A stretch of 64,000 nt of DNA, taken from contig CALLJK010000009.1 in the NCBI GenBank assembly GCA_938091745.1, positions 8,138-72,137 of the forward strand, read 5' to 3'. The stretch is from Candidatus Bipolaricaulota bacterium (lineage in GTDB: Bacteria > Bipolaricaulota > Bipolaricaulia > RBG-16-55-9 > DRXL01). Under the pieces are notes generated by a model. That model was not told where the DNA came from. It saw only the letters and a program-made list of their open reading frames with translations, and searched no databases. The translations under genes and the position numbers were made by a program. Each line of letters begins with the position of its first letter. Position 1 is the stretch's first letter. Positions 30,522 to 47,031 of the stretch are shown here, in pieces.

Positions 30522-30535
30522 AATCAAGAGCTATT

Positions 30536-31357: not shown

Positions 31358-31362
31358 AGAGT

Positions 31363-32778
31363 CTACCACCTCCTCTGGAATTTGATGCGCAAGAAGATCG
31401 CCAAGGCGTTCATGGCTAAGAGAATCGTCAGGAGCACCAAGATTGCCGCGGCAGCAATGCTGGCAAAGCCATCTTTTGCTTCGCCGATCCACGTAAAAAT
31501 CTGAATGGGAACGACGGTGAAGTAGCTGCGTAAGTTGGGCAGAAATGTTAGATACTGAAAGGCTCCCAGGAGAATAAGCAGGGCGGCCTCGCCCATCGCC
31601 CGTGAGAGCGCGATGATCAAGCCCGTCAAGATCCCTGGCAGGGCGTAGGGCAGCACATGGGAGCGTACCACTTGCCAGTGCGTCGCGCCCACGGCGTACG
31701 CCGCATGGCGAATCGAATCAGGGATCGTGCGCAAGGCTTCGCGCGACGCGATGATCACCATAGGGAGTATGAGAAGCGTCATAGTGAGGGCTCCGGTGAA
31801 GAGCACGCGGTCCATCTTGAGCGCCCGCGCTAGGATCTCTAGCCCAATGATCCCATAGATCACCGAGGGGACGCCGGCAAGATTCGCAATCAATAACTGA
31901 ATCAGCTCGGTGAGCCAATTCTTGCGGGCGTACTCTTCTAAGTATAACGCTGCGCCAACCCCTAGGGGCAGAGCGAAGAGCGCCGTCAGCCCAACTAAAT
32001 AGAACGACCCCACGATAGCACTGGCCAGCCCCGCTTTCTCGGGGGAGTTGGAGTCATAACTCGTGAGAAAGTCCCAGATAGCTTGTCCCCAGCTGCGCGT
32101 GATGGGGATCTGCGCTGTCTGCTCAGCTTCGAGCGGAAGAGTCAAGAGTTCCCCGTCGCGCTCAATGTGAACAGAGAACGGGCCTGGCTGGGCTCTTCTC
32201 TGGGCGGCGACGATGAGCGCTTCCCAGGCTTGGCGTGCCCCCGTGACGGGAATATCTTCGATTCGTACTATAATATCGCCGACGCGCAGCCCAGCTTGAA
32301 AACCAAGACTCTCTTCAGGCAGATAGTCTATGACGACGCGCAGCGCGCCCGTCTGCGGATCCATCTGGGGGAGCAGTTCTCCGAAGATCTTCACAGGGTC
32401 GCCGTTGATCCAACTGATGGGGAGCGTATCGTTGGGCAGGCGTGCGATGGCGTCCCACACATGCGCTGAGCGAAAGACAACTTCTGAGCCGATGCGAATA
32501 ACTGCGTCGAACTCAGCGATCCCCGCGCGGGCCGCGGCGCTGTCGGGGATAAAATCCGTGATGATGACATAGGGCAAGTTCTGCGCATCCCATTGGATGA
32601 CCATAGTGGAGAGCACCAAGCCTGCGCGAGAAGCCGCGCGCATGGCCATCAGTGGGCGCGCATTGATAAGAATATAGACGATCAAGGCGACTAAGAGAGC
32701 GAAGCTGATGAGGATCGTGCTGAGGGTCAGCGTGCCAAAAAGCGTGCTCTTTGTCTTACGCCAAGCGAGTGCGCTCAT
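31363..32778 (-). CDS. pstA: Phosphate ABC permease PstA with two inserted PDZ-like domains
   Basis: [25 protein letters not shown]; about 170-aa insert with [16 protein letters not shown] and [14 protein letters not shown]. Confidence 0.9.
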
Positions 32779-33710
32779 TCGTATCGCTCCCGAAAGCGGC
32801 GCACGATCCAATAGCTCAGAATATTTAAGGACAGCGTGATCACGAAGAGCAGCGCGCCGATGGCGAAGATCGTCGCCCAGATGAATGCGCCGGCTTCAGC
32901 GTCCCCTGTGGCGACGTTGACGATGTGCACCGTCAGGGTTTCCAAGGGCTTGAGCAGATCTGGGGGCCAGCTTGGCACACGTCCAGCGGCAATAGCGACG
33001 ATCATCGTCTCGCCGATAGCACGCGACATCGCCAATATGAACGACGCGGCGATCCCTGACAGGGCCGCGGGCAGCACGACATGGCGGATCGTCTCGAACT
33101 TCGTCGCCCCAAGAGCATAGGCGCCCTCGCGCAGCTCGCGCGGCACCGCGTAAATAATATCTTCGCTGAGCGACGAGACCAACGGGATGATCGCTATTCC
33201 CAAGACGATCCCCGCGCTGAGCGCGTTCCAAAACTGAATATCTGGGAGCACCGTGCGCAAGAGCGGCGTCACGAAGAGCAACGCGAAATAGCCATAGACG
33301 ACCGTAGGGATGCCTGCTAAGATCTCTAAGATGGGTTTGGCTATTTTGCGCACGCGCCCGGATGCAAATTCGCTCAGATAGATCGCGCTGAGCAGCCCGA
33401 TGGGCAGAGCTACTAATAAAGCAATCCCCGTGATGATGAGCGTGCCCATGATTAAGGGCAAAGCGCCGTAGGATGGGGTGGAGACGTCTGTGGGGGCCCA
33501 GCGTATGCCCCCTAAGAATTCCCTAAGAGAGACCTTGCTGAAGAAGACCCCTGAACCGGAGATAAAGAGCCAGATAGTAGCTGCGGTGACGACCACAGCG
33601 AGAAAAGCGCAGACGAAGAGCACACCCTGAATGAGCCGTTCCTTGAGATACCGCCCTGGAGGGGCATGCAGGGCAGGCTGGAGTGCCGTCTGCTTCATGG
33701 TTCTTTTCAT
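32775..33710 (-). CDS. pstC: Phosphate ABC permease PstC
   Basis: AIYLSEF, LAGIPTVVYG, SRAIGETM. Confidence 0.96.
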   Translation of the reverse strand: MKRTMKQTALQPALHAPPGRYLKERLIQGVLFVCAFLAVVVTAATIWLFISGSGVFFSKVSLREFLGGIRWAPTDVSTPSYGALPLIMGTLIITGIALLVALPIGLLSAIYLSEFASGRVRKIAKPILEILAGIPTVVYGYFALLFVTPLLRTVLPDIQFWNALSAGIVLGIAIIPLVSSLSEDIIYAVPRELREGAYALGATKFETIRHVVLPAALSGIAASFILAMSRAIGETMIVAIAAGRVPSWPPDLLKPLETLTVHIVNVATGDAEAGAFIWATIFAIGALLFVITLSLNILSYWIVRRFRERYE

Positions 33711-33712
33711 TT

Positions 33713-33763
33713 CTATATAGTTTTCCCCATAAAATTATAGCACCCCAGCCCAAGGGCAGTCAA
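33713..33763 (-). promoter_or_regulatory. Internal pstC promoter with CTATATAG palindrome
   Basis: TTGACT-N18-TATAAT (with TGn extension); CTATATAG at 33713-33720. Confidence 0.6.
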
Positions 33764-33778
33764 ATGAGAAGGGAGGGG

Positions 33779-33817
33779 CCGAGCCTCCTAGGGGCGAGGG
33801 GACCCCAGGAGGCTCGG
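33779..33817 (-). terminator. Stem-loop after pstS
   Basis: CCGAGCCTCCT / AGGAGGCTCGG 11-bp stem, pyrimidine tract downstream. Confidence 0.6.
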
Positions 33818-33832
33818 TGTTCGGGGGTTGGC

Positions 33833-34981
33833 TCACTTGCAGTGCTCTTTATATTTATTACGGATCTCCGTGAGCGACAGGCCGCTGTAGTTGCCGCCAA
33901 AGGCCGTGCCGGTGATGCGCTTCGCCCAGCAGGTGCGGGCTTCATCGCGCACCTCGCGCGGCGCGGGGAGATACCCAGCTTTATTGAGCATAAATTGCTG
34001 ATTACCAAGGCGCTCTTCAGCGAGATAGAACTTGATGAACTCGTCCACAGCGGGGCGCTCGCCGCTCTTCTTATTCACATAGATGAAGAGCGGTCGGCTC
34101 AACGGCTGATACGTGAATCCCAAGATCGTATCGACGGTGGGCAGGATGCCCTTGCACTCCCCGCCCTTGTTTTCTAAGGGCTTTTTGCCGTTCTTGGCCC
34201 GGCGCGCGTTGATCTCTTTCAGCACGTCTGCAGGGGTGCTGATCAGCTCGCGGCGCGGGTCGATCGCCACGGCCTGCACAAGCTGAGTATTGTGCACGAA
34301 GAAGTTATACCCAAAGTATGTGAGGGCGAAGGAGTTCGCGCCGGTCTGTTGAGCCAAAAGCTGGTCTTCTTCAGTACCGAAGTAGTCTTGTCGGGTGTCG
34401 CCCTCTTTGCCGGTAATAGCTGAGGTGAAGAAGTCGAACGTCCCAGACGTTTCAGCTGCGCCGGAGAGCGTGATCTCAGCGTTGGCGAGCGTGCTGCGCA
34501 CTTGGTTCCATTTGGTGATGAATTTTTCGGCTTCTCTAGCCCACAGCAGCTCCAGCTCGCCCACGGTCAAGCACACGGGAGCATTCCCAAAGATTTGGGT
34601 CTTGGTGCTGACGGCGACGGTCAGGCCGTCAAGGGCGACCAAGAGTTCAATATATTCGACGCCGTGCTTCGGCGCGGTCTCGATTTCGGATTGCTTAATA
34701 GCTCGAGAGGCATTGCTGATGTCGGTCTCACCGGTGACGAAGCGCCGAAAGCCCCCCGACGTGCCGCTGACAGCCACGGTGACGTTGATGTCCGGGCGGA
34801 CCTTCTTAAACTCTTCGGCCATCGCCTTGGTGATAGGGGCGACGGTGCTGGAGCCATCCGAGAGAATATTCTTTGAGTCCTTCGGAGCCCCCGGCTGCCC
34901 CACCGCCGACAAGACGACCGACCCGACGACAACCAAAACGACCAACGCTGCGCGCCTTAGAAGAGACGCGTTGAGTTTCAT
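33833..34981 (-). CDS. pstS: Phosphate-binding protein PstS
   Basis: DGSSTV, GTSGG, ASR, SGTFDFF, PLSRPLFIYV. Confidence 0.93.
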   Translation of the reverse strand: MKLNASLLRRAALVVLVVVGSVVLSAVGQPGAPKDSKNILSDGSSTVAPITKAMAEEFKKVRPDINVTVAVSGTSGGFRRFVTGETDISNASRAIKQSEIETAPKHGVEYIELLVALDGLTVAVSTKTQIFGNAPVCLTVGELELLWAREAEKFITKWNQVRSTLANAEITLSGAAETSGTFDFFTSAITGKEGDTRQDYFGTEEDQLLAQQTGANSFALTYFGYNFFVHNTQLVQAVAIDPRRELISTPADVLKEINARRAKNGKKPLENKGGECKGILPTVDTILGFTYQPLSRPLFIYVNKKSGERPAVDEFIKFYLAEERLGNQQFMLNKAGYLPAPREVRDEARTCWAKRITGTAFGGNYSGLSLTEIRNKYKEHCK

Positions 34982-35011
34982 ATTTGTCCTCCTTTAAGTA
35001 TAGTTTGCTTA

Positions 35012-35064
35012 CGATCTATATAGATCGCGCCATAAGTATACAGTACAGGAGGGGGTCTTGTCAA
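35012..35064 (-). promoter_or_regulatory. pstS promoter plus perfect 16-bp palindrome CGATCTATATAGATCG
   Basis: TTGACA-N18-TATACT; palindrome at 35012-35027 just downstream. Confidence 0.7.
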
Positions 35065-35546
35065 GTCGGGGGTATCTGCGCCAAGAAATCGTTACTAGGG
35101 GTAGGCGAAGCGTTTTGGTGCGACCGCTTTCTCAAACAAGATGCTGCACCAAAACGTTTCGGTGTTGCATATGGTTGAGAAGAGCGGGCATTCTTTACAA
35201 AGGCACGATTCTGGAAGAGTACTCAGAGTGGGGAGATTTTGAAGCGGATTGACCGGCTCAGCCAGAAGTTCTTTACGCCCTTGGGAGCGAAGCCGGTGCG
35301 CTTGTATGGACGGAGTCGTGGCACAAGCTGCTCCAGCTGGGAAAGTACTGAAGGAATTTGCGGTGTTGCCGCTATCGTGTGAGATGGGATTGCGATTGAT
35401 TGGGGCCTAGTAACGATCTATTGACCCATTACAAGAGATTTTGCTATACTTCTTTCAGCGTAGGATTTCTACAGAGCCATGTAGGAATGAATCGTCGTAG
35501 GCATTCGTGCGGGAGGTCAAAGATCGCGACACCAAATACTGATCCA

Positions 35547-36196
35547 ATGGATGAACATGCAAAGGCAATGGCCGAACGTGAAAAGACAATGAATGAATTC
35601 GCAGAGACCTTTTTTCGGACAGAATATGAGTCAGGAGGATCATGGCTCGCACGTGGAGTGCATTTATTACGGGCAGCCGAACTCGTTTGGAATGCTTATT
35701 ATCGTGATGAGCAGGAATTTCGTAAAAGGGTAGAGAACGTAGGTGAAGCTATAGTAAGTGGAATCAAAATTAATGACCTAATCTACTTAGATCAGCTCCC
35801 CATATGGGCGATGCTTGCTGGGCTAGCATTAGAGAACATGCTTAAGGCTCTCCTTATTGCTAAAATTCCCCCGCCGGAGCAAAAGCAAAAGAAGGATTTT
35901 AAGACGCTCGACAAGAAGTTAAAACCCATAATCTCATCGATTTAGCCAAGCAAGCAAAACTCTCGTTGAGTTCTGAGGAGAGCGAACTTGTTTCTAATCT
36001 TTCAAAATTCATAGAGTGGGGAGGCCGATATCCAATACCTACCAAGGCTCAAGAGATGCGCCCTGATCGGTTACCAAGGATTCCTGCTGGAGACATCAAG
36101 GAAAATCACGATCTTCTTATGCGGTTGTGTAAGCGAGTGTCTAATGGGTTCAATATCAATTTAGATGATTTGGTAGTCCCCAAGGATAGGAGCTAA
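35547..36196 (+). pseudogene. HEPN-like protein split by a one-base frameshift
   Basis: ENMLKA in the first frame; THNLIDLA...IEWGGRYP in the -1 frame after the A-run at 35921-35924; AT-rich. Confidence 0.6.
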
Positions 36197-36582
36197 GATG
36201 GCTGTGGTGATCCCTTATGTGGAAAACCGAAGCTGCCTTGTGCTCGCGTCTGCAACTGGACAAGCTGTGGACCCACATGCGCAACAAGGGCCAAAAAGCA
36301 GGTATCCTGAGACCCAAGAAAAGAGTGGCCCGTGCAGTAGGCAATCGGTAGGGGACCTTGTTGGAAAAATTGCTCTACCATGTGTAAGAGTACGTGGCGG
36401 GGACTCCAGCCATAGCCAAGTGATCAGTTATCGGGCTATGTTGCGGGTAGCAATCAGAGGTGACAATAGCGAGAATCGATGCTGGCGATGGTTGCGGGGC
36501 CAAGGGATCACGTCTGGATGATCAGGGAGTTTGCGAAGCTCACTTGCCTACGGAAGTGACTGCACTAAATGGGGTGACTACC
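36172..36582 (+). mobile_element. Degenerate IS1-family-like remnant
   Basis: Ends GGTAGTC / GACTACC; fragments LQLDKLWTHMRNK and LAMVAGPRDHVWMIRE. Confidence 0.5.
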
Positions 36583-36705
36583 CGGCTCTCACTTTGATGG
36601 AGGCCGCGTTACTCCCGGCTTATATCGCTGATTATGGCTGCTGTACGAATCAAAAATCTTGCCCAAGGCTGAAAACTAAGGTATGATGCAACAAGGAGTG
36701 AGACT

Positions 36706-36927
36706 ATGAAGCTCAAGGTTATCCTAGAAGCTGAAAAAGAGGGGGGCTATTCCGTGCATTGCCCGGCTCTGCCAGGCTGTTACAGCCAAGGTGATACCGT
36801 TGAGGAAGCTCTCGCAAACATTCGAGAAGCCATTCAGCTTTATATCGAAACTCTTAAGGATTTAGGGAAGCCGATCCCTACAAGCGACCCGGAGATCTTC
36901 GTTGAGGTTGTTGAAGTGAACGCATGA
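36706..36927 (+). CDS. hicB: HicB family antitoxin (short)
   Basis: GGYSVHCPALPGCYSQGDTVEEALANIREAI. Confidence 0.92.
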   Translation: MKLKVILEAEKEGGYSVHCPALPGCYSQGDTVEEALANIREAIQLYIETLKDLGKPIPTSDPEIFVEVVEVNA

Positions 36928-37153
36928 AGAAGCTTCCCAGCGTCCCCGGCAGCCGGGTCGTAAAAGCCTTAGAGAAGATCGGTTGGTATGTCCATCGGCA
37001 CTCTGGGGACATGTGATCTTGCGTCATGCTCGTTACCCTGACAAGCTGATTGTGGTGCCCATTCACGGCAAAAAGCCCGTGAAGAAAAGGGTTTTAAGTG
37101 GAATTCTCAAAGATGCCGGACTCGTGATAGAGGAATTTAAGCAATTACTTTGA
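36924..37153 (+). pseudogene. hicA: HicA toxin with a one-base frameshift (or sequencing error)
   Basis: MKKLPSVPGSRVVKALEKIGW..RHSG / HVILRH..VVPIHG..ILKDAGL; span is 230 nt; G-run at 37005-37008. Confidence 0.8.
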
Positions 37154-37249
37154 ATTTCGGCTCAGCTACGGGCATGATGAGCCAAACGATGACGAATCCA
37201 GAGGAGTGCTGCACTGGGGGAGCTGAAACTAGGTACGTGCTAGCTCGAG

Positions 37250-38002
37250 TTAAACATCGTGTAAGATTTCGTTCAATTCTTGCAGATTGTTAATGCGGGC
37301 TGAGGCGCGCTCATTGGTCGGGATCGAGTGGAGACCACTGAGGGGGGAGAGTCGGCCGGGGTAGAAGCGTCCCTGGAGTTCGGGTCGTTCGATCCAGACG
37401 GCGTGCAAGCCCGCACGCCGCGCCCCACGAATGTCCGTCTCAAAATCGTCGCCGACGTGTAGCGCCTCGTGCGGGGCTGCGCCCGCTCGCTTCAGCACAG
37501 AAGCCCAAAAAGCTCGGTCGAGCTTCCCATGCGCGATCCCCGTCGAGTCGGGACTAGCCAGCCAGCGGAAGAACTCTTTTAGTCCGTGCTTCTCCAGCGA
37601 GCGTTCGATCCCTGCTATCGGGCGATGCGACACGATCCCCAGCTCGATCCCGCGCCGACGCAGTCTTTCTAACGCTTCCGGCACCTCGGGGAAGAGCTCA
37701 TCTGTAGGGGTCTCCCAGTAGCGTTGGATCTCTTCAGCTATGAGCGAGAGATCGCCATTCAGCCCTAGCTCCCTTAAGATCAACTTGTTCCACTCAACAA
37801 ACGATTCCATGCTGAACCCCAGGCGCGGGCGGATCTCTTGCTGCCACCGCTCTTGCGCACGGTGATACGCTTGAGCGAGCTGCTCGCGATCCGGCGGTAT
37901 CCCAAGCTTTTCAATCCGTTGTGCAAACCAGTCGGCCTGGCCACTCCCCGGCACCCACACGAGCGTGCCGTCCATGTCGAAAAAGATCACTCTCACGCGC
38001 AT
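37250..38002 (-). CDS. HAD-superfamily hydrolase
   Basis: FDMDGTL, HVGDDFETDIRGA. Confidence 0.9.
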   Translation of the reverse strand: MRVRVIFFDMDGTLVWVPGSGQADWFAQRIEKLGIPPDREQLAQAYHRAQERWQQEIRPRLGFSMESFVEWNKLILRELGLNGDLSLIAEEIQRYWETPTDELFPEVPEALERLRRRGIELGIVSHRPIAGIERSLEKHGLKEFFRWLASPDSTGIAHGKLDRAFWASVLKRAGAAPHEALHVGDDFETDIRGARRAGLHAVWIERPELQGRFYPGRLSPLSGLHSIPTNERASARINNLQELNEILHDV

Positions 38003-38081
38003 AGAGTGTTATCGTACGCGATACAGCAGCTCACGTCAAGGGCTTGCACGCACCCGCGCCCTGAGCTAAGATAAGCTCACT

Positions 38082-39038
38082 ATGGATCTCACGATCTCAC
38101 AGATTTCTATTCCAAATCCATATTTTGAAAGCCCAACGAATGTCTTCTTGATCCGGAGCTCGCAGAGCCCCCCTGTACTCATAGATACCGGAATCAGCAC
38201 GGAAGAGTCCTTCAGTTTATTGCGCCGCGAGCTGGCCAAGCATAGCTGCTCGCTCAAGGATATTGCTGTCGTTCTGTTGACTCATAAGCATATCGATCAT
38301 AGCGGGCTGGCACGCGCCATCCAAGACGAGTCTGGAGCAGTAGTCTACGTGCATAGCGACGATTGGACAGACGTCGCTCTCTTTGAAGAGCGTCACGAAA
38401 GGGTCTCGCAGCTCTATCTAGAAGCAATGCGCCGCTGGGGCATCCCTGAAGAAGTTATTGTGCAGGTGGGGCACTTTCGCTCGCGGTTTGCTGGGCTTGG
38501 GCGTTCTGTCCCCACAGCCCAGAAGATCAGTGACGGTCAGATACTGCGCTTTGGCGAAGTAGAACTGCATGTCTTGCACACCCCTGGCCATACCCAAGGG
38601 TCGGTCTGCTTTCTGCTTGGGGAGAAACTCTTCGCTGGGGATCATCTCCTGCCGACGTACACGTCGAACGTCGGCGCGACCGACGTCACTACTGACGGCC
38701 ATCTCGAAAAATTTCTCGCTTCGCTCAAGAGAATTCTTGAGTTACCCAACGCGGAACGCTTAGAGATCTACCCGGGGCACGGTCAGCCCTGGACCGATCC
38801 GCGCCCGCGCATCACAAAGATCTTCAAGCACCATTATGAGCGGACTGATCGTATCTTAAAAATCTTGAGCGACGGTCAAGCGCTCACGGCATTTGAGATC
38901 GCGCAGAAGCTCTTTGGGCGGCTCAAAGACTATCATGTGCTGCTTGGAGCTGGTGAAGTATATGCCCATCTTGAAGTCCTAGAGAGCCAGGGGCGCATCT
39001 GTCAGAGTGAGCCGAATCGCTTTGCCCTGCGCACGTGA
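38082..39038 (+). CDS. Metallo-beta-lactamase fold hydrolase
   Basis: THKHIDH, TPGHT, GDH, PGHG. Confidence 0.9.
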   Translation: MDLTISQISIPNPYFESPTNVFLIRSSQSPPVLIDTGISTEESFSLLRRELAKHSCSLKDIAVVLLTHKHIDHSGLARAIQDESGAVVYVHSDDWTDVALFEERHERVSQLYLEAMRRWGIPEEVIVQVGHFRSRFAGLGRSVPTAQKISDGQILRFGEVELHVLHTPGHTQGSVCFLLGEKLFAGDHLLPTYTSNVGATDVTTDGHLEKFLASLKRILELPNAERLEIYPGHGQPWTDPRPRITKIFKHHYERTDRILKILSDGQALTAFEIAQKLFGRLKDYHVLLGAGEVYAHLEVLESQGRICQSEPNRFALRT

Positions 39039-39091
39039 CAAAACATACGTCCTCTGCTACAATACCGACATAAATTTTATAGAAGGGACTG

Positions 39092-40144
39092 GTGACCATG
39101 ACGCGGACGCGACTCATGCACGTGCTTTTGGGGGTCATCTTAGCGCTCGGTATTCTTCTGGTGCCTGCCAAGGCGACAATCACTGTCCGCTTTAGCGATA
39201 TCTCGCTGCGCCCAGAAGAGAAAATCGACTACGATTTCACACCCACCACCACAGGCGAGATCGTCTTCAAATTAGCCCTGCGCCCGACGACTGCTGCTCT
39301 GCGGGTTCAGCTCTTCCTTGAGAAGACTCTTATAGTAGATCAGTCGGGGCCAGTGACGCAAACGGCCAAGGCAGAGGTCTCCGAAGAGCAAGTCGGTCGC
39401 CCCTGGCGTTTGGTCGTGACCAATCTCAGCTCTCAAACAGTCGAGGGGCGCCTCGAGCTCACCTATCCTCGACGCTTCTGCAAAGAGATTTCTGCGCAAT
39501 ATCGCATCAAGGTGAGCTATGAAGTGGGCACAGAGCTGGAAGATCTGCATTGTCAGCAGCTTTATGGGGTCTTGCGCTCGCTGCCCGCGGAGCATCTCAA
39601 GCGCCTGCGGGAGATTCGCGCCCGCGAACCTGATTTTCTCTATGGGCAGTACTTCCCGCCCAGCTTGATAGAGCTTCCTGGGCTGCGCGCCAGCCGCACG
39701 TTCACGCTCGTCGTGTATCATGAGCTTGGGCACTTGGTGCATTTTACGCGCTCGACAGCTGATCAAGAAGCTCGTTGGGAGAAGCTCTTCAGCGAGTCTG
39801 GTCGTGATCCCGATAACTTCGTGCGTGATCCCATCGACCGCTCGCTCTACGCTATGACCAATCAGTATGAAGACTTCGCCGTGACGTTCTCAGCGTATAT
39901 CGCCGACAGCCAGCTTTTTATGAACGATGCGCTCACGCGCAGCCAGCGCAGCAAGCCCCTGCTCTTGCAGAAGTTCAAAGTGATTCTAGAGTACTTCCGG
40001 CATCAGGTGGACGGCCAAACGAAAGTCTATATTTATCGTGTTGGGACGGAAGTGCCCATCCCTACGGTCTATCGTGCTTCTGTACCGTTGACCCCAGACG
40101 ATTTACCAGACTTCACTGGGCCCATCGCGTGGGAGCCTTTTTAG
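39092..40144 (+). CDS. Secreted putative zinc metalloprotease
   Basis: Signal peptide; HELGH and YAMTNQYEDFA. Confidence 0.6.
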   Translation: MTMTRTRLMHVLLGVILALGILLVPAKATITVRFSDISLRPEEKIDYDFTPTTTGEIVFKLALRPTTAALRVQLFLEKTLIVDQSGPVTQTAKAEVSEEQVGRPWRLVVTNLSSQTVEGRLELTYPRRFCKEISAQYRIKVSYEVGTELEDLHCQQLYGVLRSLPAEHLKRLREIRAREPDFLYGQYFPPSLIELPGLRASRTFTLVVYHELGHLVHFTRSTADQEARWEKLFSESGRDPDNFVRDPIDRSLYAMTNQYEDFAVTFSAYIADSQLFMNDALTRSQRSKPLLLQKFKVILEYFRHQVDGQTKVYIYRVGTEVPIPTVYRASVPLTPDDLPDFTGPIAWEPF

Positions 40145-41130
40145 GGCATAGGGGCAGCCGTATTGAGCGCGGTCTCAGCGATATTGACCGAATAGTCTTT
40201 AACGCGCCCGATGCTGTCGAAGGCAATCCCGATGAGCTGAGCTTCTTGAGGAGCAAGGTCCCACAAGAGCTTGATGGCCTTCATGAGGCGCTCTTCGACC
40301 CCTGAGGCCTTGTCGATTACTTGGCTGGCGAGGTCGGGATCGGGCGAGCGGAACGCATCCACAGACTCTTTCAGTAAGTTCGCCACGTGCTCCCCGCCCT
40401 TGTGCAGGGCATCGGCGACCTTGGGTGGGGCAGGAACTTTGATCACCGTCGTCACACGAGCGATCTTGACCGCATGATCGGCGATACGCTCTAGCTGCCG
40501 CGCCACCGTGTGGGTATCGAAGAGCTTGACGCGACTGATGCCCAGCGCTTCTTCGGCGAGCAGATCACGCAACGCGATGCGGAACTGTCTGTAGAGCATC
40601 AAATAGAGACGGTCGACGTCCTCGTCGCGTGCGGCAATATCGTGTGCGAGCTCAGCGTCGTAGTCAGTGAGCGCGCGGACAGCATCGGTGAACATGTCGT
40701 GCACCATTAAGAAGATGCGTTCGAGCGTCTTTGGCGCGGAGAGCTCGGAAAGATTGAGCAGATTATGAATGACGATAGAGTCTCGTGATTCTTCCATGAT
40801 CTCCGGGCCGATGAGGGCTTGGGTGATCTTGCGGATTGTCTGGCGCTGTTCGGGGGTGATGCGCTCCCCGCGGACTTCGATGATGTCAAATCCTGCGACG
40901 TACATGGAGATGAACGCCCGCATAAGGGTGTCGCCGGTTTTAGCATTGAGCTGGAGGACGCCGCGGGTCAGTTGGGAATCGCGGTGCGGTCGCAAAATCA
41001 GCAAATCAGGGCTGTGGGGGTGGAGTTCGATTTCTGCGCCGGCATGGAGCTTTTGCGCTTCAGCCCAGTCTTTCGGCAGGGTGACCATGAACGTCGCCCC
41101 GCCAGTGATCTGCACTCTCCGGGTCTCCAT
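40141..41130 (-). CDS. AbrB-PhoU fusion phosphate uptake regulator (archaeal type)
   Basis: METRRVQITGGATFMVTLPKDWA (AbrB); YVAGFDII; DEDVDRLY, QLERIADHA (PhoU repeats). Confidence 0.85.
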   Translation of the reverse strand: METRRVQITGGATFMVTLPKDWAEAQKLHAGAEIELHPHSPDLLILRPHRDSQLTRGVLQLNAKTGDTLMRAFISMYVAGFDIIEVRGERITPEQRQTIRKITQALIGPEIMEESRDSIVIHNLLNLSELSAPKTLERIFLMVHDMFTDAVRALTDYDAELAHDIAARDEDVDRLYLMLYRQFRIALRDLLAEEALGISRVKLFDTHTVARQLERIADHAVKIARVTTVIKVPAPPKVADALHKGGEHVANLLKESVDAFRSPDPDLASQVIDKASGVEERLMKAIKLLWDLAPQEAQLIGIAFDSIGRVKDYSVNIAETALNTAAPMP

Positions 41131-41160
41131 AGTCCCTCCTGTCTATCGCAATTGGTTCGA

Positions 41161-41224
41161 ATTATAATATATAACTATATAGACTGTCAAGGGGTTGACA
41201 AGGCACGGGCTAGGGGTGTATACT
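41161..41224. promoter_or_regulatory. Back-to-back divergent promoters (AbrB-PhoU regulator / zur)
   Basis: Minus: TTGACA-N18-TATAAT containing CTATATAG; plus: TTGACA-N18-TATACT. Confidence 0.7.
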
Positions 41225-41229
41225 ATAAC

Positions 41230-41244
41230 TGAAAATTTTTTTCA
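41230..41244. promoter_or_regulatory. Zur/Fur box 1
   Basis: TGAAAAT-T-TTTTTCA, 7-1-7. Confidence 0.65.
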
Positions 41245-41256
41245 ATAAGGAGGACT

Positions 41257-41685
41257 ATGAGCATCCTGACGGAGAACTGGGAGGAGCGCCTCAAAGAGCA
41301 GGGCTACAGGATAACCAAGTCTCGTCGCACGGTGCTGGAGGTGCTGGAAGCAAGTCCAATCCGTCTAACGCCAGAAGAGATCTATCGTCGGGCGCGGCGG
41401 CGCCATCGCAAGCTAGGATTGGTCACGGTCTATCGGACTTTGGCCCTATTGGAGAAGCTGAACTTAGTGCAGAGAGTTCATACCGAAGCCGGATGTCGCA
41501 GTTTGACAGCTGTGCGCTTGGACAAAGGACATCATCATCACTTGGTCTGTCGCACCTGCGGCTACGTCGAAGAGTTTCCTGATTGTGCGCTCGGCAGCGT
41601 ACTGCGCAAGCTCCAGGCGCGCACAGGGTTTGCTATCGAATCCCATCATTTGGAGGTGGTCGGCCGATGCCCGAAGTGTCAGTAG
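41257..41685 (+). CDS. zur: Fur family regulator, likely Zur
   Basis: TVYRTL, HHHHLVCRTCG, CPKC; precedes znuACB. Confidence 0.8.
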   Translation: MSILTENWEERLKEQGYRITKSRRTVLEVLEASPIRLTPEEIYRRARRRHRKLGLVTVYRTLALLEKLNLVQRVHTEAGCRSLTAVRLDKGHHHHLVCRTCGYVEEFPDCALGSVLRKLQARTGFAIESHHLEVVGRCPKCQ

Positions 41686-41706
41686 CAATTTTTTGAGCCT
41701 CACAAA

Positions 41707-41721
41707 TGAAATCTATTTTCA
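41707..41721. promoter_or_regulatory. Zur/Fur box 2
   Basis: TGAAATC-T-ATTTTCA, followed by ATAAG as in box 1. Confidence 0.65.
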
Positions 41722-41738
41722 ATAAGAAGGAGGTCGCT

Positions 41739-42626
41739 ATGAAGAAAGTAGCAACGCTTCTCATGGTGCTCATTGTCTTACTCGGATGTGGAGCGGGTGT
41801 AGCGCAGCCCAAGCTCAAGGTCGTGGCGAGCTTCTATATCCCGTATGAGTTCACCAAGAACGTCGGCGGGGATCGCGTTGAAGTCAAAAACTTAGTACCG
41901 GCGGGCGCAGAACCTCACGATTTTGAGCCCTCCCCCGCGGATATTCGGGCGATTGAAGACGCCCAGGTCTTTGTGTATAACGGGGCGTCGATGGAGTCGT
42001 GGGTCGAGCGCGTGCTCTCGGTCATCAAGAACCGTGATAAGCTCGTGGTCATCGAAGCGACCAAGGGGCTGCCCTTGCGCAAGGCCGAGGAAGAAGAGCT
42101 TGAGTTCGACCCTCATGTCTGGACGGACCCGATTCTGGCCAAAGAGATGGTGAAGAATATTCGCGACGGCTTGATCACGGCCGACAGCGTGGGTAGCTCG
42201 GTCTACATTGAGAACGCTCAGAATTACAATACCAAGCTCGATGCGCTCGACGCTCAAATTCGCGAGGGCGTGAAGGTCTGTCGGCTGCGGGACTTTATTA
42301 TCTCGCATAGATTTATGGATTATTTCGCGGCTCGATATAATCTGACGGCGCATTCAATTTCGGGGCTGGAGCCCAGCGAGCCGACCCCCCAGCGCCTGGC
42401 CGAGCTGATTCGCTTGGGCAAGGAGAAGGGTATCAAATATATCTTTGCCGAGAGATCCGACGCGCTCAAGGCCCTCGCAGTTCTGGCGCGCGAGCTGGGC
42501 GCGCAGATTCTGACGCTCAACACCGGGCACAGCGTCACTGAAGAAGAAGAGCGTGCGGGGAGGAACTATCTGGTGCTCATGGAAGAGAATCTTAAGAATT
42601 TACGAATCGGGCTGGAGTGCCGATGA
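41739..42626 (+). CDS. znuA: Zn/Mn ABC substrate-binding protein
   Basis: EPHDFEP, DPHVWTDP, SH. Confidence 0.85.
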   Translation: MKKVATLLMVLIVLLGCGAGVAQPKLKVVASFYIPYEFTKNVGGDRVEVKNLVPAGAEPHDFEPSPADIRAIEDAQVFVYNGASMESWVERVLSVIKNRDKLVVIEATKGLPLRKAEEEELEFDPHVWTDPILAKEMVKNIRDGLITADSVGSSVYIENAQNYNTKLDALDAQIREGVKVCRLRDFIISHRFMDYFAARYNLTAHSISGLEPSEPTPQRLAELIRLGKEKGIKYIFAERSDALKALAVLARELGAQILTLNTGHSVTEEEERAGRNYLVLMEENLKNLRIGLECR

Positions 42627-43375
42627 GCGATTCTGTCGTTGAGATCGAAAATCTCTGGTTCAGCTACGGTGCTGAGCCGGTGCTCGAGGGCGTCTCGCTC
42701 ACGGTCACGCGGGGGGAGATCCTCGGGCTGATCGGCCCTAACGGCTCTGGAAAGACGACGCTGCTGAAAGTGATCTTGGGGCTGCTCACCCCTCAACGGG
42801 GGACGATCCGGCTCTTTGGGCAAGAGCTGAGACGCTTTCGTGAGCGCGCACGGGTGGGGTATGTGCGCCAGCGCAGCTGGGACTTCGAGCGCAATTTCCC
42901 TGCTTCTGTAGAGGAGCTCGTGCGCCTGGGGCGGGTGCCGCGCTTGCGCTGGGGCCTGTGGAGCCGTGCTGACACCGCAGCTGTGGAGCGGGCCATGCGC
43001 GCTGTACACATAGAAGAGCTGCGCGCGCGCCCCATCAGCGAGCTCTCTGGGGGCCAGCAGCAGCGGGTTTTTCTCGCGCGTGTCTTATCCCAGGAGCCTG
43101 AGCTCTTATTGTTGGACGAGCCAACGGCTGCCATCGACCCCGCTGTCGAAGCCGAGTTCTACGAACTCTTAGCTCAGCTCAACCGCGAGCAGGGCTTGAC
43201 TATTCTCTTGGTCTCTCACGACATTGAAGCTATTGTCAAGCAAGTGACGAAGATCGCGTGCTTAAACAGAAAATTGCTCTTCTGTGGGACGCCCCAAGAG
43301 TGCTTGGCCAGCGACCTCTTAGAGAGGGTTTACGCGGGGAGAAAGCTTGTGCAGCATCAGCATCCGTGGGGGTAA
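42623..43375 (+). CDS. znuC: Zn/Mn ABC ATPase
   Basis: [23 protein letters not shown]. Confidence 0.85.
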   Translation: MSDSVVEIENLWFSYGAEPVLEGVSLTVTRGEILGLIGPNGSGKTTLLKVILGLLTPQRGTIRLFGQELRRFRERARVGYVRQRSWDFERNFPASVEELVRLGRVPRLRWGLWSRADTAAVERAMRAVHIEELRARPISELSGGQQQRVFLARVLSQEPELLLLDEPTAAIDPAVEAEFYELLAQLNREQGLTILLVSHDIEAIVKQVTKIACLNRKLLFCGTPQECLASDLLERVYAGRKLVQHQHPWG

Positions 43376-43377
43376 GT

Positions 43378-44205
43378 ATGTTTGAGATCTTCGAGTTCGA
43401 ATTTATGAGATTGGCGTTTGTTGGGGGGACGATCATTGGGGTGCTCGCCCCGACGATCGGGATCTTTTTGGTGCTACGACGCTATGGGCTTATCGGTGAT
43501 GGATTGGGACACATTGCGTTTGGGGGCGTGGCATTTGGGCAGCTTGTGCGAGCTGACCCGACTCTGATGGCGCTCTCGTACTCGGCACTCGCTGCTCTTG
43601 GGATTGAGCGCCTGCGCGCGAAGGGGCGCTTAGGTGGCGATGTCGCTATCGCGATCTTCCTCTCGTCGGGGTTGGCTTTAGGACTAGTCTTAGCGCGCCT
43701 GGCGCGACGGTCTACAGATCAATTATGGGGGTATCTCTTTGGCAGCGTGATCGCGCTCCAGCCCAGCGATATCGTGCAGATCGCATTGATAGCGTTCTGT
43801 GTGATTGGGACGCTCTTTGTTGTGCGCCGTGAGCTCTTCTTCATCACGTTTGATGAAGAGACGGCACGGGCTTCGGGAATCCGCGTCGGCTTCTATAATA
43901 TTTTATTAGTGCTCCTAGCAGCGCTCACCGTGGTCTCTGCCATTCAGATAGTCGGGTTGCTCTTGATCTCAGCGCTGTTGGTCCTGCCGGTGGCGGCGTC
44001 ATTACAGATCGCGCGCAGCTTCCGTCAGGCACTCTTTACGGCGATCGGGTGTAGCCTGGTGTCGGTCTATGGTGGGCTGATCGGATCGTATTATTTGGAT
44101 ACCCAGCCAGGACCGACAATCGTCTTGACGGCGTTGCTTGTCTTTGTGCTTGCAAGCGCGGTGCGCCTCGTCTGGAGGCCCTCACCCCTAGCCCCTCTCC
44201 CGTGA
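43378..44205 (+). CDS. znuB: Zn/Mn ABC permease
   Basis: GDGLGHIAFGG, YLFGS, FDEETA. Confidence 0.85.
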   Translation: MFEIFEFEFMRLAFVGGTIIGVLAPTIGIFLVLRRYGLIGDGLGHIAFGGVAFGQLVRADPTLMALSYSALAALGIERLRAKGRLGGDVAIAIFLSSGLALGLVLARLARRSTDQLWGYLFGSVIALQPSDIVQIALIAFCVIGTLFVVRRELFFITFDEETARASGIRVGFYNILLVLLAALTVVSAIQIVGLLLISALLVLPVAASLQIARSFRQALFTAIGCSLVSVYGGLIGSYYLDTQPGPTIVLTALLVFVLASAVRLVWRPSPLAPLP

Positions 44206-44246
44206 GTCTCACGGGAGAGGGGTGCCGTCAGGCGGGGTGAGGGCCT
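44176..44246. repeat. BoxC/REP-like nested palindrome, copy 3
   Basis: AGGCCCTCACCCC..CCCCTCTCCCGTGAG-CTCACGGGAGAGGGG..GGGGTGAGGGCCT. Confidence 0.75.
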
Positions 44247-44903
44247 TCAGCGCGTCTTAGCGCTGCGTAGGTACTCTTTTATGGTATTAAAGATCACCTG
44301 TGCGACCGTCCATTGATACGTGAAGCTGCGCAGGCTCATCTCTTCAGCAGGGTTTGTCAAAAACCCCGTCTCGATGAGCACGGCGGGCATCTCGGCCCAC
44401 CGGATGAAGAGCGTTTGGTGTTTGATCCCTCGGTCAGTGACGCCCAGCGCGCGCGTGAGGCGTTTTTGTAGGAGCAGTGCTAAGGTACGACTCTGTGGGT
44501 AGGTGGGAAGATTTGTATCGTCGTGGACTAAGACCTCAATGCCGTTGGCTGCAGCATGACGCGGGTGCGCGTTGGCGTGAATAGAGACGAAGAGATCGGC
44601 TCGCAGACGATTGGCCAAGCCGGTGCGCTCGCGATGTGGGACGTAGACGTCTTCAGAGCGCGTCAGCACAATAGAGATTTCATCATCGTACAGCCCTAAG
44701 AGTCGGATAAAACGCGCGATATCAAGATTGATATCTTTCTCTTGGGTGCCGTAGTAGCCGATAGCGCCGGGGTCCCAGCCGCCGTGTCCGGGGTCGATGA
44801 CGACTAAGAAGCGCTTGGCTTGGCTCTGGCCGATCTGGCCCCATCCGCAGATGCAGACCAAAACTATCACAAAGACGAATGCTTTTGCTGTCAGGGCCTT
44901 CAT
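44247..44903 (-). CDS. N-acetylmuramoyl-L-alanine amidase (Amidase_3)
   Basis: IDPGHGG, EKDINL, SIHAN, LIETGF. Confidence 0.93.
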   Translation of the reverse strand: MKALTAKAFVFVIVLVCICGWGQIGQSQAKRFLVVIDPGHGGWDPGAIGYYGTQEKDINLDIARFIRLLGLYDDEISIVLTRSEDVYVPHRERTGLANRLRADLFVSIHANAHPRHAAANGIEVLVHDDTNLPTYPQSRTLALLLQKRLTRALGVTDRGIKHQTLFIRWAEMPAVLIETGFLTNPAEEMSLRSFTYQWTVAQVIFNTIKEYLRSAKTR

Positions 44904-45116
44904 GAGCCACAGTATACCGAATGAAGGAGAGCTCAGACTATAATCGGCATTACATTGAGCCGCACGAAGGAGCCCTTTCGCTGATAAAATGGGGGCATTG
45001 CTCGCTTATCCCCCTCATTTGACAAGAGTGCCTCCCCTCCAGTATAATATAGTGAAAGTGCGCTTTATATATAGAACAGCGCATTACTATAAACACTCCC
45101 AGAGGAGGTAGGGACT

Positions 45117-46157
45117 ATGCGGATATGGTGTGCGCGTCGGGTCGTCGGTTTGATGGGTCTGTTGGCCGTTGGGGTCTTGTTGGGAAGCTTGGTTGTGGGC
45201 TTCCCTGGGGTGTCGCAGCAGGGGTTGATCCCTGAAGAGCTTGTTGTGGGCATGGTGCCCTCGCGCGCGGCGACGATCTTGCAGCCCCCAGTAGAAGGCC
45301 TCGCAAAACTGGTGTTGGACTACGTCCAGAAGAACGGCTTCTCTCAGGTGAAGCGCGTGCGCGCGGTCATCCCCGAGTCCTATCCGGCGACAATAGAAGC
45401 CATCGGTGCGGAGAAGATCCATGTCGGGCTGCTGGGGCCGTTCCAGATCGTCCAAGTCGTGGATAGCTACGGGGCCATCCCCATCAACGTCACCAAGCGC
45501 GGAAACAACTTGACGTTCCGCGCCCAGTTCATGGTGCATGTCGACAGCTCGCTCAAAGCCCTCAAGGACGACAATCAAGACCCCAAGGACGACCTGGTGG
45601 GCTTAGTCAAATCCGGGGCGACCGTGAGATTCAGTTACGGCGGCAGCTCCACGTCAACCTCGGGCTTTCTCTTCCCCTGCAAGACCCTCAAAGACTTGGG
45701 GATCCTGCCAGGAGACTATAAGAACTTCAAGACGATCCGCGCTGCCAATCACTTAGCCTCGGCCATCGCTGTCTACAAGAAGGACGTGGATGTGGGCGTC
45801 GGGTTCGACGATGTGCGCCAGAGCCTCAACACCGAGCAGACTAAGAAAGAATTGGGCTGGAAGCCCGGCGACCCCGAACCCAGCACCAAAGTGAACGTCA
45901 TCGGCTACAGCGATGACATCCCCAACGACGGCATCGTCGCTATTAAAGCATTAGATGCCAAGCTGCGCGAGACGATCAAACAAGCGTTCGTCGAGGTCAT
46001 GAAGACCGAAGAGGGCAAGAAGTTCGGCAAGGACGCGCTCGATGCCACGGACTTTGTCGCCGTCCCTGAGGGCTACGATATGCTGAAAGCCCTCGAAGCC
46101 GTGCGCGTCGTGGCCAAGGAGATCCAGCCCAACTTAGCTAAGTGCGAGAATCAGTAA
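45117..46157 (+). CDS. phnD: Phosphate/phosphite/phosphonate ABC binding protein
   Basis: SYPATIEAI, STSTSGFLFP, NH, IPNDG. Confidence 0.8.
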   Translation: MRIWCARRVVGLMGLLAVGVLLGSLVVGFPGVSQQGLIPEELVVGMVPSRAATILQPPVEGLAKLVLDYVQKNGFSQVKRVRAVIPESYPATIEAIGAEKIHVGLLGPFQIVQVVDSYGAIPINVTKRGNNLTFRAQFMVHVDSSLKALKDDNQDPKDDLVGLVKSGATVRFSYGGSSTSTSGFLFPCKTLKDLGILPGDYKNFKTIRAANHLASAIAVYKKDVDVGVGFDDVRQSLNTEQTKKELGWKPGDPEPSTKVNVIGYSDDIPNDGIVAIKALDAKLRETIKQAFVEVMKTEEGKKFGKDALDATDFVAVPEGYDMLKALEAVRVVAKEIQPNLAKCENQ

Positions 46158-46175
46158 GCGTTCATAGCAGCAGTG

Positions 46176-46208
46176 AGAGGGGGCAGGGCGAAGCCCTGTC
46201 CCCTCTTT
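46176..46208 (+). terminator. Stem-loop after phnD
   Basis: AGAGGGGGCAGGGC-GAA-GCCCTGTCCCCTCT then TT. Confidence 0.65.
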
Positions 46209-46245
46209 GCGTTCTCACCCTACGTTGGTTTAAAATACGGTGAGC

Positions 46246-47031
46246 ATGACTGCGCCTATCTTGCGTGTTCATAACCTCACGGTGATCTATCCTGGGGTGC
46301 AACCCGTCAAAGCCCTCGATAATGTGAACGTGGAGATCTACCCTGGGGAGTTTGTCGTCGTCGCTGGGGTTTCCGGATCGGGGAAATCGACGCTCTTGCG
46401 CGCGATCAATCGCCTAGCAGAGAACGATCACGCGCAGATCCACGGGGAGATTTACTTCGACGGCGTCAACGTCTTAAAAGCTTCCCGGCGACAACTCCGC
46501 GAGATCCGCTCGCGCATTGGATTTATCTTTCAAGAGTATAACGTAGTTGAGCGGTTGCCGGTATTGACGAACGCTTTGGTAGGCTCGCTCGGATACGTTG
46601 GACTTGTACGCTCCTTGCTGGGACGGTTCCCCAAAGAGCAGATCGAGCGGGCGCACCACGCATTAGTGCGCGTGGGGATCCCTCAGCCACGGCATGGTGA
46701 TCGCGCCGCGCGGCTGTCGGGTGGGCAGAAGCAGCGCGTGGGCATCGCGCGAGCTCTGTTGCAGAAGCCCAAGCTCATCTTGGCTGACGAGCCCGTTGCT
46801 TCGCTCGATCCCATCACGGCGAACGTCGTCATGAATATCTTCAAAAAAATTAACGAAGACGAGGGGATCACGACGATCGTAAATTTGCATGACCCTGTCT
46901 TGACGTTCAAATACGGCAAGAGAATTATCGGGCTCAAACACGGGCGGATCATCTACGATAAGCCCATTACCGCGATCAATCGCGAGACGTTCGAAGAAGA
47001 TATCTATGGCACAGTGGACAGAGAGGGCTAG
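46246..47031 (+). CDS. phnC: Phosphonate-type ABC ATPase
   Basis: GVSGSGKST, LSGGQKQRV, ADEPVASLDP, VNLH. Confidence 0.88.
   Translation: MTAPILRVHNLTVIYPGVQPVKALDNVNVEIYPGEFVVVAGVSGSGKSTLLRAINRLAENDHAQIHGEIYFDGVNVLKASRRQLREIRSRIGFIFQEYNVVERLPVLTNALVGSLGYVGLVRSLLGRFPKEQIERAHHALVRVGIPQPRHGDRAARLSGGQKQRVGIARALLQKPKLILADEPVASLDPITANVVMNIFKKINEDEGITTIVNLHDPVLTFKYGKRIIGLKHGRIIYDKPITAINRETFEEDIYGTVDREG

Follow-up and report, generated by a model that had tools for sequence, protein, structure and literature searches.

A conserved palindromic box at the phosphate-uptake promoters of a Bipolaricaulota bacterium as a candidate operator of an AbrB-PhoU regulator

The 64-kb stretch of DNA analysed here, called the window below, comes from a Candidatus Bipolaricaulota bacterium. 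It carries the genes of a Pst phosphate transporter and of a PhnDCE phosphonate/phosphite transporter, together with a gene for a protein in which a DNA-binding domain of the AbrB type is joined to a PhoU domain (40141-41130, minus strand). The promoters of pstS, of pstC and of this AbrB-PhoU regulator share an 8-bp palindrome, CTATATAG, and the phnD promoter carries a near-identical copy. The box keeps its sequence and its position among related bacteria, and it accompanies the regulator gene from bacteria to archaea. It is probably the operator of the AbrB-PhoU protein, which would act as an autoregulated one-component repressor of phosphate uptake.

The box and its promoters

Three exact copies of CTATATAG are present in the window, at 33713-33720, 35016-35023 and 41175-41182, and an exact-match search of the 64 kb found no fourth. 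These are the coordinates that had been reported in the initial annotation. In 100 dinucleotide-preserving shuffles of the window the mean was 0.36 copies and the maximum 2, so that three or more copies were reached in 0 of 100; the real copies span 7.5 kb, against 0.36 expected over the whole window. The pstS copy forms the centre of a perfect 16-bp palindrome, CGATCTATATAGATCG (35012-35027), and ATATATAG, at 45067-45074 near phnD, matches CTATATAG at 7 of 8 positions; both features, described beforehand, are confirmed from the sequence. The boxes and the promoters to which they belong, with the divergent fur promoter, are as follows.

35064-35035, minus strand: pstS promoter TTGACA-18-TATACT (consensus scan 11/12), both hexamers kept in relatives
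35016-35023: CTATATAG box of the pstS promoter, 11 nt past the -10, at about +5 to +12, assuming a transcription start 7 nt past the -10
33763-33734, minus strand: internal pstC promoter TTGACT-18-TATAAT (consensus scan 11/12), conserved in relatives
33713-33720: CTATATAG box of the pstC promoter, 13 nt past the -10, without palindrome arms
41190-41161, minus strand: regulator promoter TTGACA-18-TATAAT (consensus scan 12/12), conserved in the genus
41175-41182: CTATATAG box of the regulator promoter, inside the -35/-10 spacer, 2 nt past the -35
45019-45048, plus strand: phnD promoter TTGACA-18-TATAAT (consensus scan 12/12)
45067-45074: ATATATAG box of the phnD promoter, 18 nt past the -10
41195-41224, plus strand: fur promoter with an 18-nt spacer (consensus scan 11/12)

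These five promoters occupy the top ranks of the sigma-70 consensus scan and all have 18-nt spacers; the description of the four box-bearing promoters as near-consensus, made in the initial annotation, agrees with their scores of 11/12 or 12/12. Since both hexamers are at or near consensus, no activator should be needed. All four boxes lie across the core promoter or the start of the transcribed region, as the operator of a repressor at a sigma-70 promoter should. A protein bound there would block the binding of RNA polymerase at the regulator gene and promoter escape at pstS, pstC and phnD, and the positions are therefore those of repression, autorepression included. Behind the regulator box stands TTATATAT in the window; most members of the genus have CTATATAT there, so that the box is effectively a tandem one. 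It also lies 12 nt upstream of the -35 of the divergent fur/znu promoter.

The same arrangement is found throughout the relatives. In the regulator promoter CTATATAG is exact in 11 of 11 loci of the same genus, and also in a locus of another genus (L025) whose protein is 59% identical. The pstS promoter has it in 12 of the 13 family-level loci with upstream DNA, the thirteenth reading CTATATAT, and the pstS-pstC spacer, which holds the pstC promoter, in 14 of 14. The phnD promoter carries a box at the same place in all 11 family-level loci, as ATATATAG in eight of them and as exact CTATATAG in three. When column identity was computed on family-level sequences anchored on the box, the mean at pstS was 0.99 inside the box versus 0.72 in the -35/-10 spacer, and at pstC 1.00 versus 0.63 in the promoter spacer and 0.65 in the 12 nt past the box.

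A more distant case is provided by G038, a complete class-level relative of 1.7 Mb. Its locus has 66% GC, its genome contains three copies of CTATATAG and no copy of the reversed control pattern, and all three copies lie within 1.2 kb at the pstS/regulator locus: two of them upstream of pstS, at distances of 31 nt and 149 nt, and the third at 43 nt upstream of the regulator gene. The pstS box is again 11 nt past the -10 of a TTGACA-17-TATACT promoter, and the regulator box overlaps the -10. Judged by these alignments, the box forms a phylogenetic footprint and is a cis-element conserved in the promoters of pstS, pstC, phnD and the regulator. The initial annotation had proposed it as their common element and had left its presence in orthologues to be checked; it is indeed kept in the orthologous pstS, pstC and regulator promoters of relatives while the spacers drift.

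A variant was observed in one clade of Bipolaricaulota metagenome-assembled genomes labelled Thermotogae/Acetothermia (loci L102-L108), in which most regulator promoters have TCTATATYGATATA, 12-bp palindrome TATATCGATATA, or a one-base variant of it, and not CTATATAG. The exact TCTATATYGATATA form occurs in four of the seven loci (L102, L103, L104 and L108). This may be a variant operator in which the half-sites CTATA and TATAG have moved apart.

The AbrB-PhoU protein and its haloarchaeal homologues

The regulator, a protein of 329 residues, begins with a SpoVT/AbrB-type domain (PF04014, MazE_antitoxin, residues 8-52, 30.8 bits versus a cut-off of 24.7), beta-stranded in the predicted models, and ends with two PhoU repeats (PF01895, 88.2 bits, in two stretches) that form a six-helix bundle. 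The full-length model has a pLDDT of 91.6. In this model, residues ~130-329 superpose on PhoU crystal structures with a target-normalised Foldseek TM-score of 0.79-0.81 (4q25, 1t72 and 1t8b), and PhoU structures are also matched by the sequence of the regulator. The fold search with the full-length model gave matches to the PhoU part only, and a sequence search of known structures found no solved structure with an AbrB-PhoU fusion. A middle domain at about residues 56-125 (40756-40965 of the window) was observed in addition, a beta-alpha-beta-alpha-beta-beta module that no Pfam family covers and that is conserved from Bipolaricaulota to Halobacteria. Its predicted fold resembles IF3-C, Alba, Smr and SepF domains with Z scores of 8-9, and the many ties among these common folds name no function.

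The predicted DNA-binding stretch is highly conserved. Across 28 aligned sequences from bacteria and archaea its consensus is M-E-x-R-K-V-Q-I/V-T-G-G-S/A-T-F/Y-x-V-T/S-L/I-P-K-x-W-A, with R4, V6, Q7, T9, G10, G11, T13, P19, K20, W22 and A23 invariant in 28 of 28, and invariant columns are found in all three parts of the protein. The four other AbrB/MazE-type proteins of the genome are ordinary antitoxin-like proteins and bear no resemblance to this stretch. The gene is present in 36 of the 41 relatives searched. It adjoins pstS in many of them (G025, G028, G031, G033, G034 and G038 included), and lies 5.2 kb from pstS in the window. When residues 46-318 of PstB were paired in a complex prediction with residues 125-329 of the regulator, its PhoU part, the score was 0.53 and that of one control 0.55, which speaks neither for nor against docking on PstB.

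A scan of the genomes of ~186,000 species with the regulator returned Bipolaricaulota first and then dozens of Halobacteria, whose proteins are 42-46% identical along residues 1-329; outside the phylum, haloarchaea thus hold the closest homologues. The initial annotation had suggested an inspection of archaeal pst upstream regions, and the same box was found there, both before the haloarchaeal regulator and before divergent pstS. Among 63 haloarchaeal regulator loci, TATATAG occurs in 36 and CTATAGA in 15 more, 45-53 nt before the start codon and ~10 nt upstream of a TTTATA box. A divergent pstS is present in 38 of these loci, and the common spacer contains exact CTATATAG in 28 of the 38 and at least a 7-mer of it in 37. 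Haloarchaeal promoters are of another type, and since the box travels with the gene even there, the AbrB-PhoU protein is by far the best candidate binder and autoregulation is likely. Of the exact copies in haloarchaeal genomes, those at pst number one of six in a Haloferax genome and two of eight in a Halobellus genome, and the neighbours of the other copies in these two genomes are unrelated by Pfam, except for one metallophosphoesterase.

The full-length identity of 42-46%, together with the observation from database records that some Bipolaricaulota metagenome-assembled genomes seem to come from hypersaline sites, suggests that regulator and box were passed horizontally between haloarchaea (loci L111-L175) and Bipolaricaulota. 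Additional short words were observed beside the boxes in both groups. Haloarchaeal pstS promoters (e.g. L117, L121, L112, L134 and L141) have a second conserved word, CTATGA, 3 nt from exact CTATATAG and between the box and the TATA element, and in Bipolaricaulota a CTATAC or CTATAA word lies 12-14 nt past the pstS and phnD boxes. These words may be auxiliary half-sites.

On the favoured reading, the N-terminal swapped-hairpin domain of the AbrB/SpoVT type would bind the palindrome as a symmetric dimer and the C-terminal PhoU bundle would report the phosphate status. With sufficient phosphate, the regulator would sit on the box in its own -35/-10 spacer, or over the first 5-20 transcribed bases of pstS, pstCAB-phoU and phnDCE, and would thereby block sigma-70 promoters that are otherwise near consensus. 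Under phosphate shortage it would come off the DNA, and this would release all four units, its own gene included, from repression. In pstS and phnD the box would also form the top of a covarying 5'-terminal hairpin, which most likely stabilises the two binding-protein messages after their synthesis. That binding should occur at sufficiency and release at scarcity is an analogy drawn with Escherichia coli PhoU, the negative element of the Pho response.

Further sites, hairpins and competing explanations

The genome to which the window belongs (1.74 Mb, 56% GC, 91.5% complete) contains 18 exact copies of CTATATAG, of which 12 are coding and 6 intergenic according to crude gene calls made in the analysis; the mean for 8-mer palindromes with six A/T is 2.4 intergenic copies. 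Half of the six intergenic copies are the pstS, pstC and regulator sites. The other three (G000:C11:70618, which is locus L182 1730-1747; G000:C21:25706; G000:C21:5857) each head an operon, namely, in the same order, hdrC-hdrB-hdrA-mvhD-[NiFe] hydrogenase, hdrC-hdrB-hdrA-mvhD-metV-metF, and a carbon monoxide dehydrogenase/acetyl-CoA synthase (CODH/ACS) unit of cooC-like, ferredoxin, oxidoreductase and acsB genes. Among the alignable loci of the genus, the hydrogenase copy is exact in 5 of 6 (5 unalignable), where it forms a tandem CTCTATAGAG-CTATATAG, the metVF copy in 6 of 6 (4 unalignable), and the cooC/acsB copy in 3 of 7 (3 unalignable). The promoters of these Hdr/Wood-Ljungdahl operons match the consensus less well than the phosphate promoters. 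G016, a genome of another genus with 19 exact copies in total, has Hdr or CooC neighbours at 0 of the 12 copies checked, and the link to Hdr is for this reason shown within the genus only. The 17 distinct intergenic 7-mer sites of the genome provided no further target clearly related to phosphate; their neighbours are a protoglobin gene, gpsA/DUF4384, an RNaseH-like gene, a family-4 glycosyltransferase and unknowns. The Hdr/Wood-Ljungdahl sites are a new point of this analysis. The phosphate regulon as it was first proposed is therefore upheld for pstS, pstC, phnD and the regulator gene, and its restriction to phosphate is not, other intergenic copies heading Hdr/Wood-Ljungdahl operons at two conserved sites.

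The second new point is the covariation of the sequences that flank the box at pstS and phnD, where two inverted repeats were found.

35010-35029, minus strand: inverted repeat with covarying arms that encloses the pstS box, predicted to fold at the 5' end of the pstS mRNA into a stem of 8 bp closed by an AUAU loop
45058-45084, plus strand: inverted repeat GCGCTT.../...AGCGC that encloses the phnD box, predicted to form a hairpin in the 5' untranslated region

At pstS, 94.8% of the cells of the alignment are paired, four of the eight pairs are changed on both sides, a G-U occurs at one pair in six sequences, and the covariation score was reached by 0 of 500 shuffles. The arms change in step among relatives, as in CGAT/ATCG, TGAT/ATCA and CAAA/TTTG. 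The phnD hairpin, predicted by RNAalifold, has nine pairs, five of them changed on both sides, and its support is weaker than that of pstS. Both sets are small and made up of related sequences (12 for pstS, 11 for phnD), and represent few independent events. Neither pstC nor the regulator has such arms, nor does G038. The 16-bp palindrome of pstS was considered as simply a longer operator, and this was rejected on account of arms that covary with G-U pairs, as RNA does, and that are missing at those three places. The G-U pairing points to a role of the pstS arms at the RNA level. The most likely assignment from the alignments, for pstS and phnD alike, is a 5'-terminal stabilising mRNA hairpin formed over the operator; at pstS only a few bases separate the beginning of the stem from the place where the transcript is expected to start.

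Several of these observations weigh against the operator reading. The box is not over-represented genome-wide, its 18 exact copies comparing with 14 for the reversed control pattern, and the genome-wide count for which the initial annotation had asked thus shows no enrichment of the word as such; the signal is one of placement and conservation, not of copy number. No exact CTATATAG is found in 11 of the 28 regulator promoters with upstream DNA, these being among the more distant loci, against 17 in which it is exact. Part of the conservation at pstS and phnD may be owed to RNA, given the covariation of the arms. The Hdr/Wood-Ljungdahl sites imply either a regulon wider than phosphate, grown in this genus to include these operons, or a binder that is more general or shares its site with another factor. 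Three two-component systems of the OmpR type, encoded elsewhere in the genome, could contribute to control. Finally, the pho-boxes of Halobacterium are needed for up-regulation according to an excerpt of PMC6560208, which fits an activator and not a repressor. The sign of control may differ between archaea and Bipolaricaulota, or the argument for repression from box position may be wrong.

The first competing explanation, which appears unlikely, is that some other transcription factor, of the OmpR type or a small global one, binds the box, while the AbrB-PhoU gene is merely one of its targets and the protein acts like an ordinary PhoU at the transporter. The conserved boxes heading the hdrCBA/metVF and hdrCBA/hydrogenase operons would suit such a broader regulator, and the three OmpR-type pairs offer candidates for it. 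Against it, the box goes with the AbrB-PhoU gene even in haloarchaea, whose transcription machinery and set of regulators are different, every genomic copy in G038 sits at the pstS/regulator locus, and the predicted DNA-contact stretch of the regulator is invariant wherever the box is invariant. Regulators of the OmpR/PhoB type moreover use direct repeats, whereas the box is palindromic.

An element without a dedicated regulator is, in our judgement, improbable. It would consist of the 5'-terminal mRNA hairpin of pstS and phnD, of a -10-like TATATA that pauses sigma-bound RNA polymerase, or of both. The G-U pairs of the covarying pstS arms and the five doubly changed pairs out of nine at phnD are what such an element should display, and the TATATA contained in the box stands at about +5 to +20 in three promoters. 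The regulator copy, however, lies in a -35/-10 spacer that is not transcribed, the copies of pstC and of G038 have no arms, those of haloarchaea are upstream of the TATA box, and the 8-mer itself is invariant and never covaries. Chance AT-rich promoter sequence devoid of function, with which the ordinary genomic count (18 versus 14, with 6 intergenic against a mean of 2.4) would agree, is hardly credible: shuffling never yielded three copies in the window, and the G038 copies, three of three at one locus, the column identity of a box that stays invariant while its flanks drift, and the haloarchaeal recurrence across domains effectively refute it.

The operator reading can be extended to a much larger scenario, which we regard as conceivable and, taken as a whole, doubtful. 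The AbrB-PhoU/CTATATAG pair would have crossed between haloarchaea and Bipolaricaulota and would work on TATA/BRE and sigma-70 promoters alike. It would replace PhoBR as the master phosphate switch and be wired to Hdr/MetFV, Hdr/hydrogenase and CODH/ACS, so that phosphate would gate Wood-Ljungdahl energy metabolism in an acetogen-like lineage. The same bases at pstS and phnD would have two roles, one as operator in the DNA and one as loop in a stabilising mRNA hairpin.

The phosphate locus beside known systems of control

The genes around the boxes are listed here; the identities given in the initial annotation agree with Pfam and NCBIfam.

33833-34981, minus strand: pstS, phosphate-binding protein (Pfam PBP_like_2, 3.4e-31; NCBIfam TIGR02136, 214 bits, above the cut-off)
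29811-33710, minus strand: pstC-pstA-pstB-phoU operon
32775-33710, minus strand: pstC (Pfam, NCBIfam)
31363-32811, minus strand: pstA (Pfam, NCBIfam)
30536-31492, minus strand: pstB (Pfam, NCBIfam)
29811-30527, minus strand: phoU (Pfam, NCBIfam)
40141-41130, minus strand: AbrB(MazE_antitoxin)+PhoU regulator, 329 residues (Pfam)
41257-41685, plus strand: Fur-family gene, followed by znuA, znuC and znuB, divergent from the regulator (Pfam, NCBIfam)
45117-48577, plus strand: phnD-phnC-phnE, phosphonate/phosphite ABC transporter (Pfam, NCBIfam)
33779-33817, minus strand: GC-rich hairpin of the pstS-pstC spacer, arms CCGAGCCTCCT / AGGAGGCTCGG (sequence and spacer alignment)
41230-41244: palindrome TGAAAATTTTTTTCA, just after the -10 of fur/znuACB

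The true start of pstC is probably the second ATG (33698), as the first is not conserved in relatives, and pstB probably begins at Met 46 of its listed frame. The pstA frame is long (482 residues) and shows matches to PDZ families at residues 79-225, ahead of BPD_transp_1; the PDZ_6 match reaches 32.5 bits, above its cut-off of 27, and a PDZ insertion is unusual for a PstA permease. The arms of the spacer hairpin change in step among relatives when the alignment is compared by eye, without formal count (e.g. CCGAGCCTCC/GGAGGCTCGG versus CTGAGCCCCCC/GGGGGGCTCAG), and it lacks a clear T-run behind it. The hairpin may terminate part of the transcription or stabilise the pstS message at its 3' end, and in this way set the ratio of pstS to pstCAB. 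Positions 35111-35169, some 50-100 nt upstream of the -35 of pstS, hold an inverted repeat of 11 bp, CGTTTTGGTGC ... GCACCAAAACG, and a third copy related to it. The end of another gene occupies this place in relatives, and the repeat resembles an insertion specific to the lineage.

The phosphate regulator and the zinc operon have one common divergent control region throughout the genus. The palindrome TGAAAATTTTTTTCA is kept as TTGAAAA..TTTTCA in most genus loci with a divergent Fur-family gene and is probably, by its sequence and place, a Fur/Zur operator apart from the phosphate box. The box at 41175 was considered as the Zur operator of fur/znu and rejected, this promoter having its own conserved palindrome, TGAAAA..TTTTCA, after the -10.

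Bacterial phosphate control is taught as a PhoR/PhoB system with PhoU as accessory. The initial annotation had put forward an independence from PhoB. No OmpR-type regulator is encoded in the window, the five Trans_reg_C matches of the genome all lying outside it, and no Pho-box direct repeats were seen at the pstS, pstC, regulator and phnD promoters, where the -35 is a consensus TTGACA or TTGACT. Three OmpR-type regulator/kinase pairs are nevertheless present elsewhere in the genome, none of them near pst, and independence is therefore not established; the best score for the PhoB equivalog (TIGR02154) in this 91.5% complete genome is 234.9 bits versus a cut-off of 296.2.

The PhoU of E. coli lacks a DNA-binding domain and acts via the PhoR kinase; activation there is by PhoB, at Pho boxes made of direct repeats that stand in place of the -35. 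The system described here resembles the E. coli Pho regulon in the PhoU domain tied to pst, in the pst and phn targets and in what would be negative control at high phosphate. It differs by its consensus -35, by its palindromic box and by having no regulator that reaches the PhoB cut-off. How PhoU signals is a long-standing open question. Here PhoU is fused directly to a DNA-binding domain, with a probable operator defined to the base and placed on simple near-consensus promoters, and a system as small as this, with a single protein and a single 8-bp site, makes what PhoU senses approachable in vitro. If the Hdr/Wood-Ljungdahl sites are real targets, they would in addition connect the supply of phosphate with the fixation of carbon and the conservation of energy in an uncultured phylum that is widespread.

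The AbrB and SpoVT proteins of Bacillus subtilis are repressors that overlap promoters. Like the regulator, they combine an N-terminal SpoVT/AbrB-type domain with a C-terminal domain for oligomer state or signal. The sites of AbrB are loosely defined, whereas the box is a strict, conserved 8-bp palindrome, and the regulator differs further by its C-terminal PhoU and its extra IF3-C/Alba-like middle domain. For the predicted hairpins, the counterparts are the known 5'-terminal stem-loop stabilisers of mRNA, those of the E. coli ompA and the B. subtilis aprE/ermC leaders. As at pstS, where the 5' end is a predicted one, their stem-loop is a few bases from the 5' end and its pairing is kept by compensatory changes. 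Unlike in these leaders, the loop and upper stem of the predicted hairpin at pstS coincide with a probable DNA operator.

The closest counterparts are the haloarchaeal PhoU-type factors. According to an excerpt of PMC6267482, PhoU2 of Haloferax, beside pst1, is a predicted transcription factor owing to a DNA-binding domain at its N-terminus, and the excerpt of PMC6560208 presents the pho-boxes of the Halobacterium pst promoters as motifs of PhoU regulators. In the part consulted of PMC6864096 archaeal PhoU is treated only as part of the pst operon, and in that of PMC1502140 PhoU belongs to a transporter bicluster of Halobacterium with an unnamed 'motif #1'. The pho-box of Halobacterium salinarum (Furtwangler et al. 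2010, as cited in the excerpts of PMC6560208 and PMC6267482) is likened to the present box by its description only, not by its sequence to CTATATAG. Literature searches, with subscription journals and supplements outside their scope, found no paper on an AbrB-PhoU fusion or its box in bacteria. In haloarchaea such a pair of regulator and box has been suspected but barely characterised, and the present pair is a variant of it in bacteria. The likeness to these factors (e.g. PhoU2/HVO_2374 beside pst1 in Haloferax volcanii) extends to the three-part architecture, to a gene beside or divergent to pstS, and to a (C)TATATAG box before both regulator and pstS. The hairpin arms and the Hdr/Wood-Ljungdahl sites are seen only in the bacterial lineage, not in haloarchaea. 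The box itself stands about 10-13 nt upstream of the archaeal TATA box in haloarchaea, and inside or just past the sigma-70 core promoter in the Bipolaricaulota, a position that implies repression. Since haloarchaea possess the same regulator-box pair and are genetically tractable, the prediction can be checked there.

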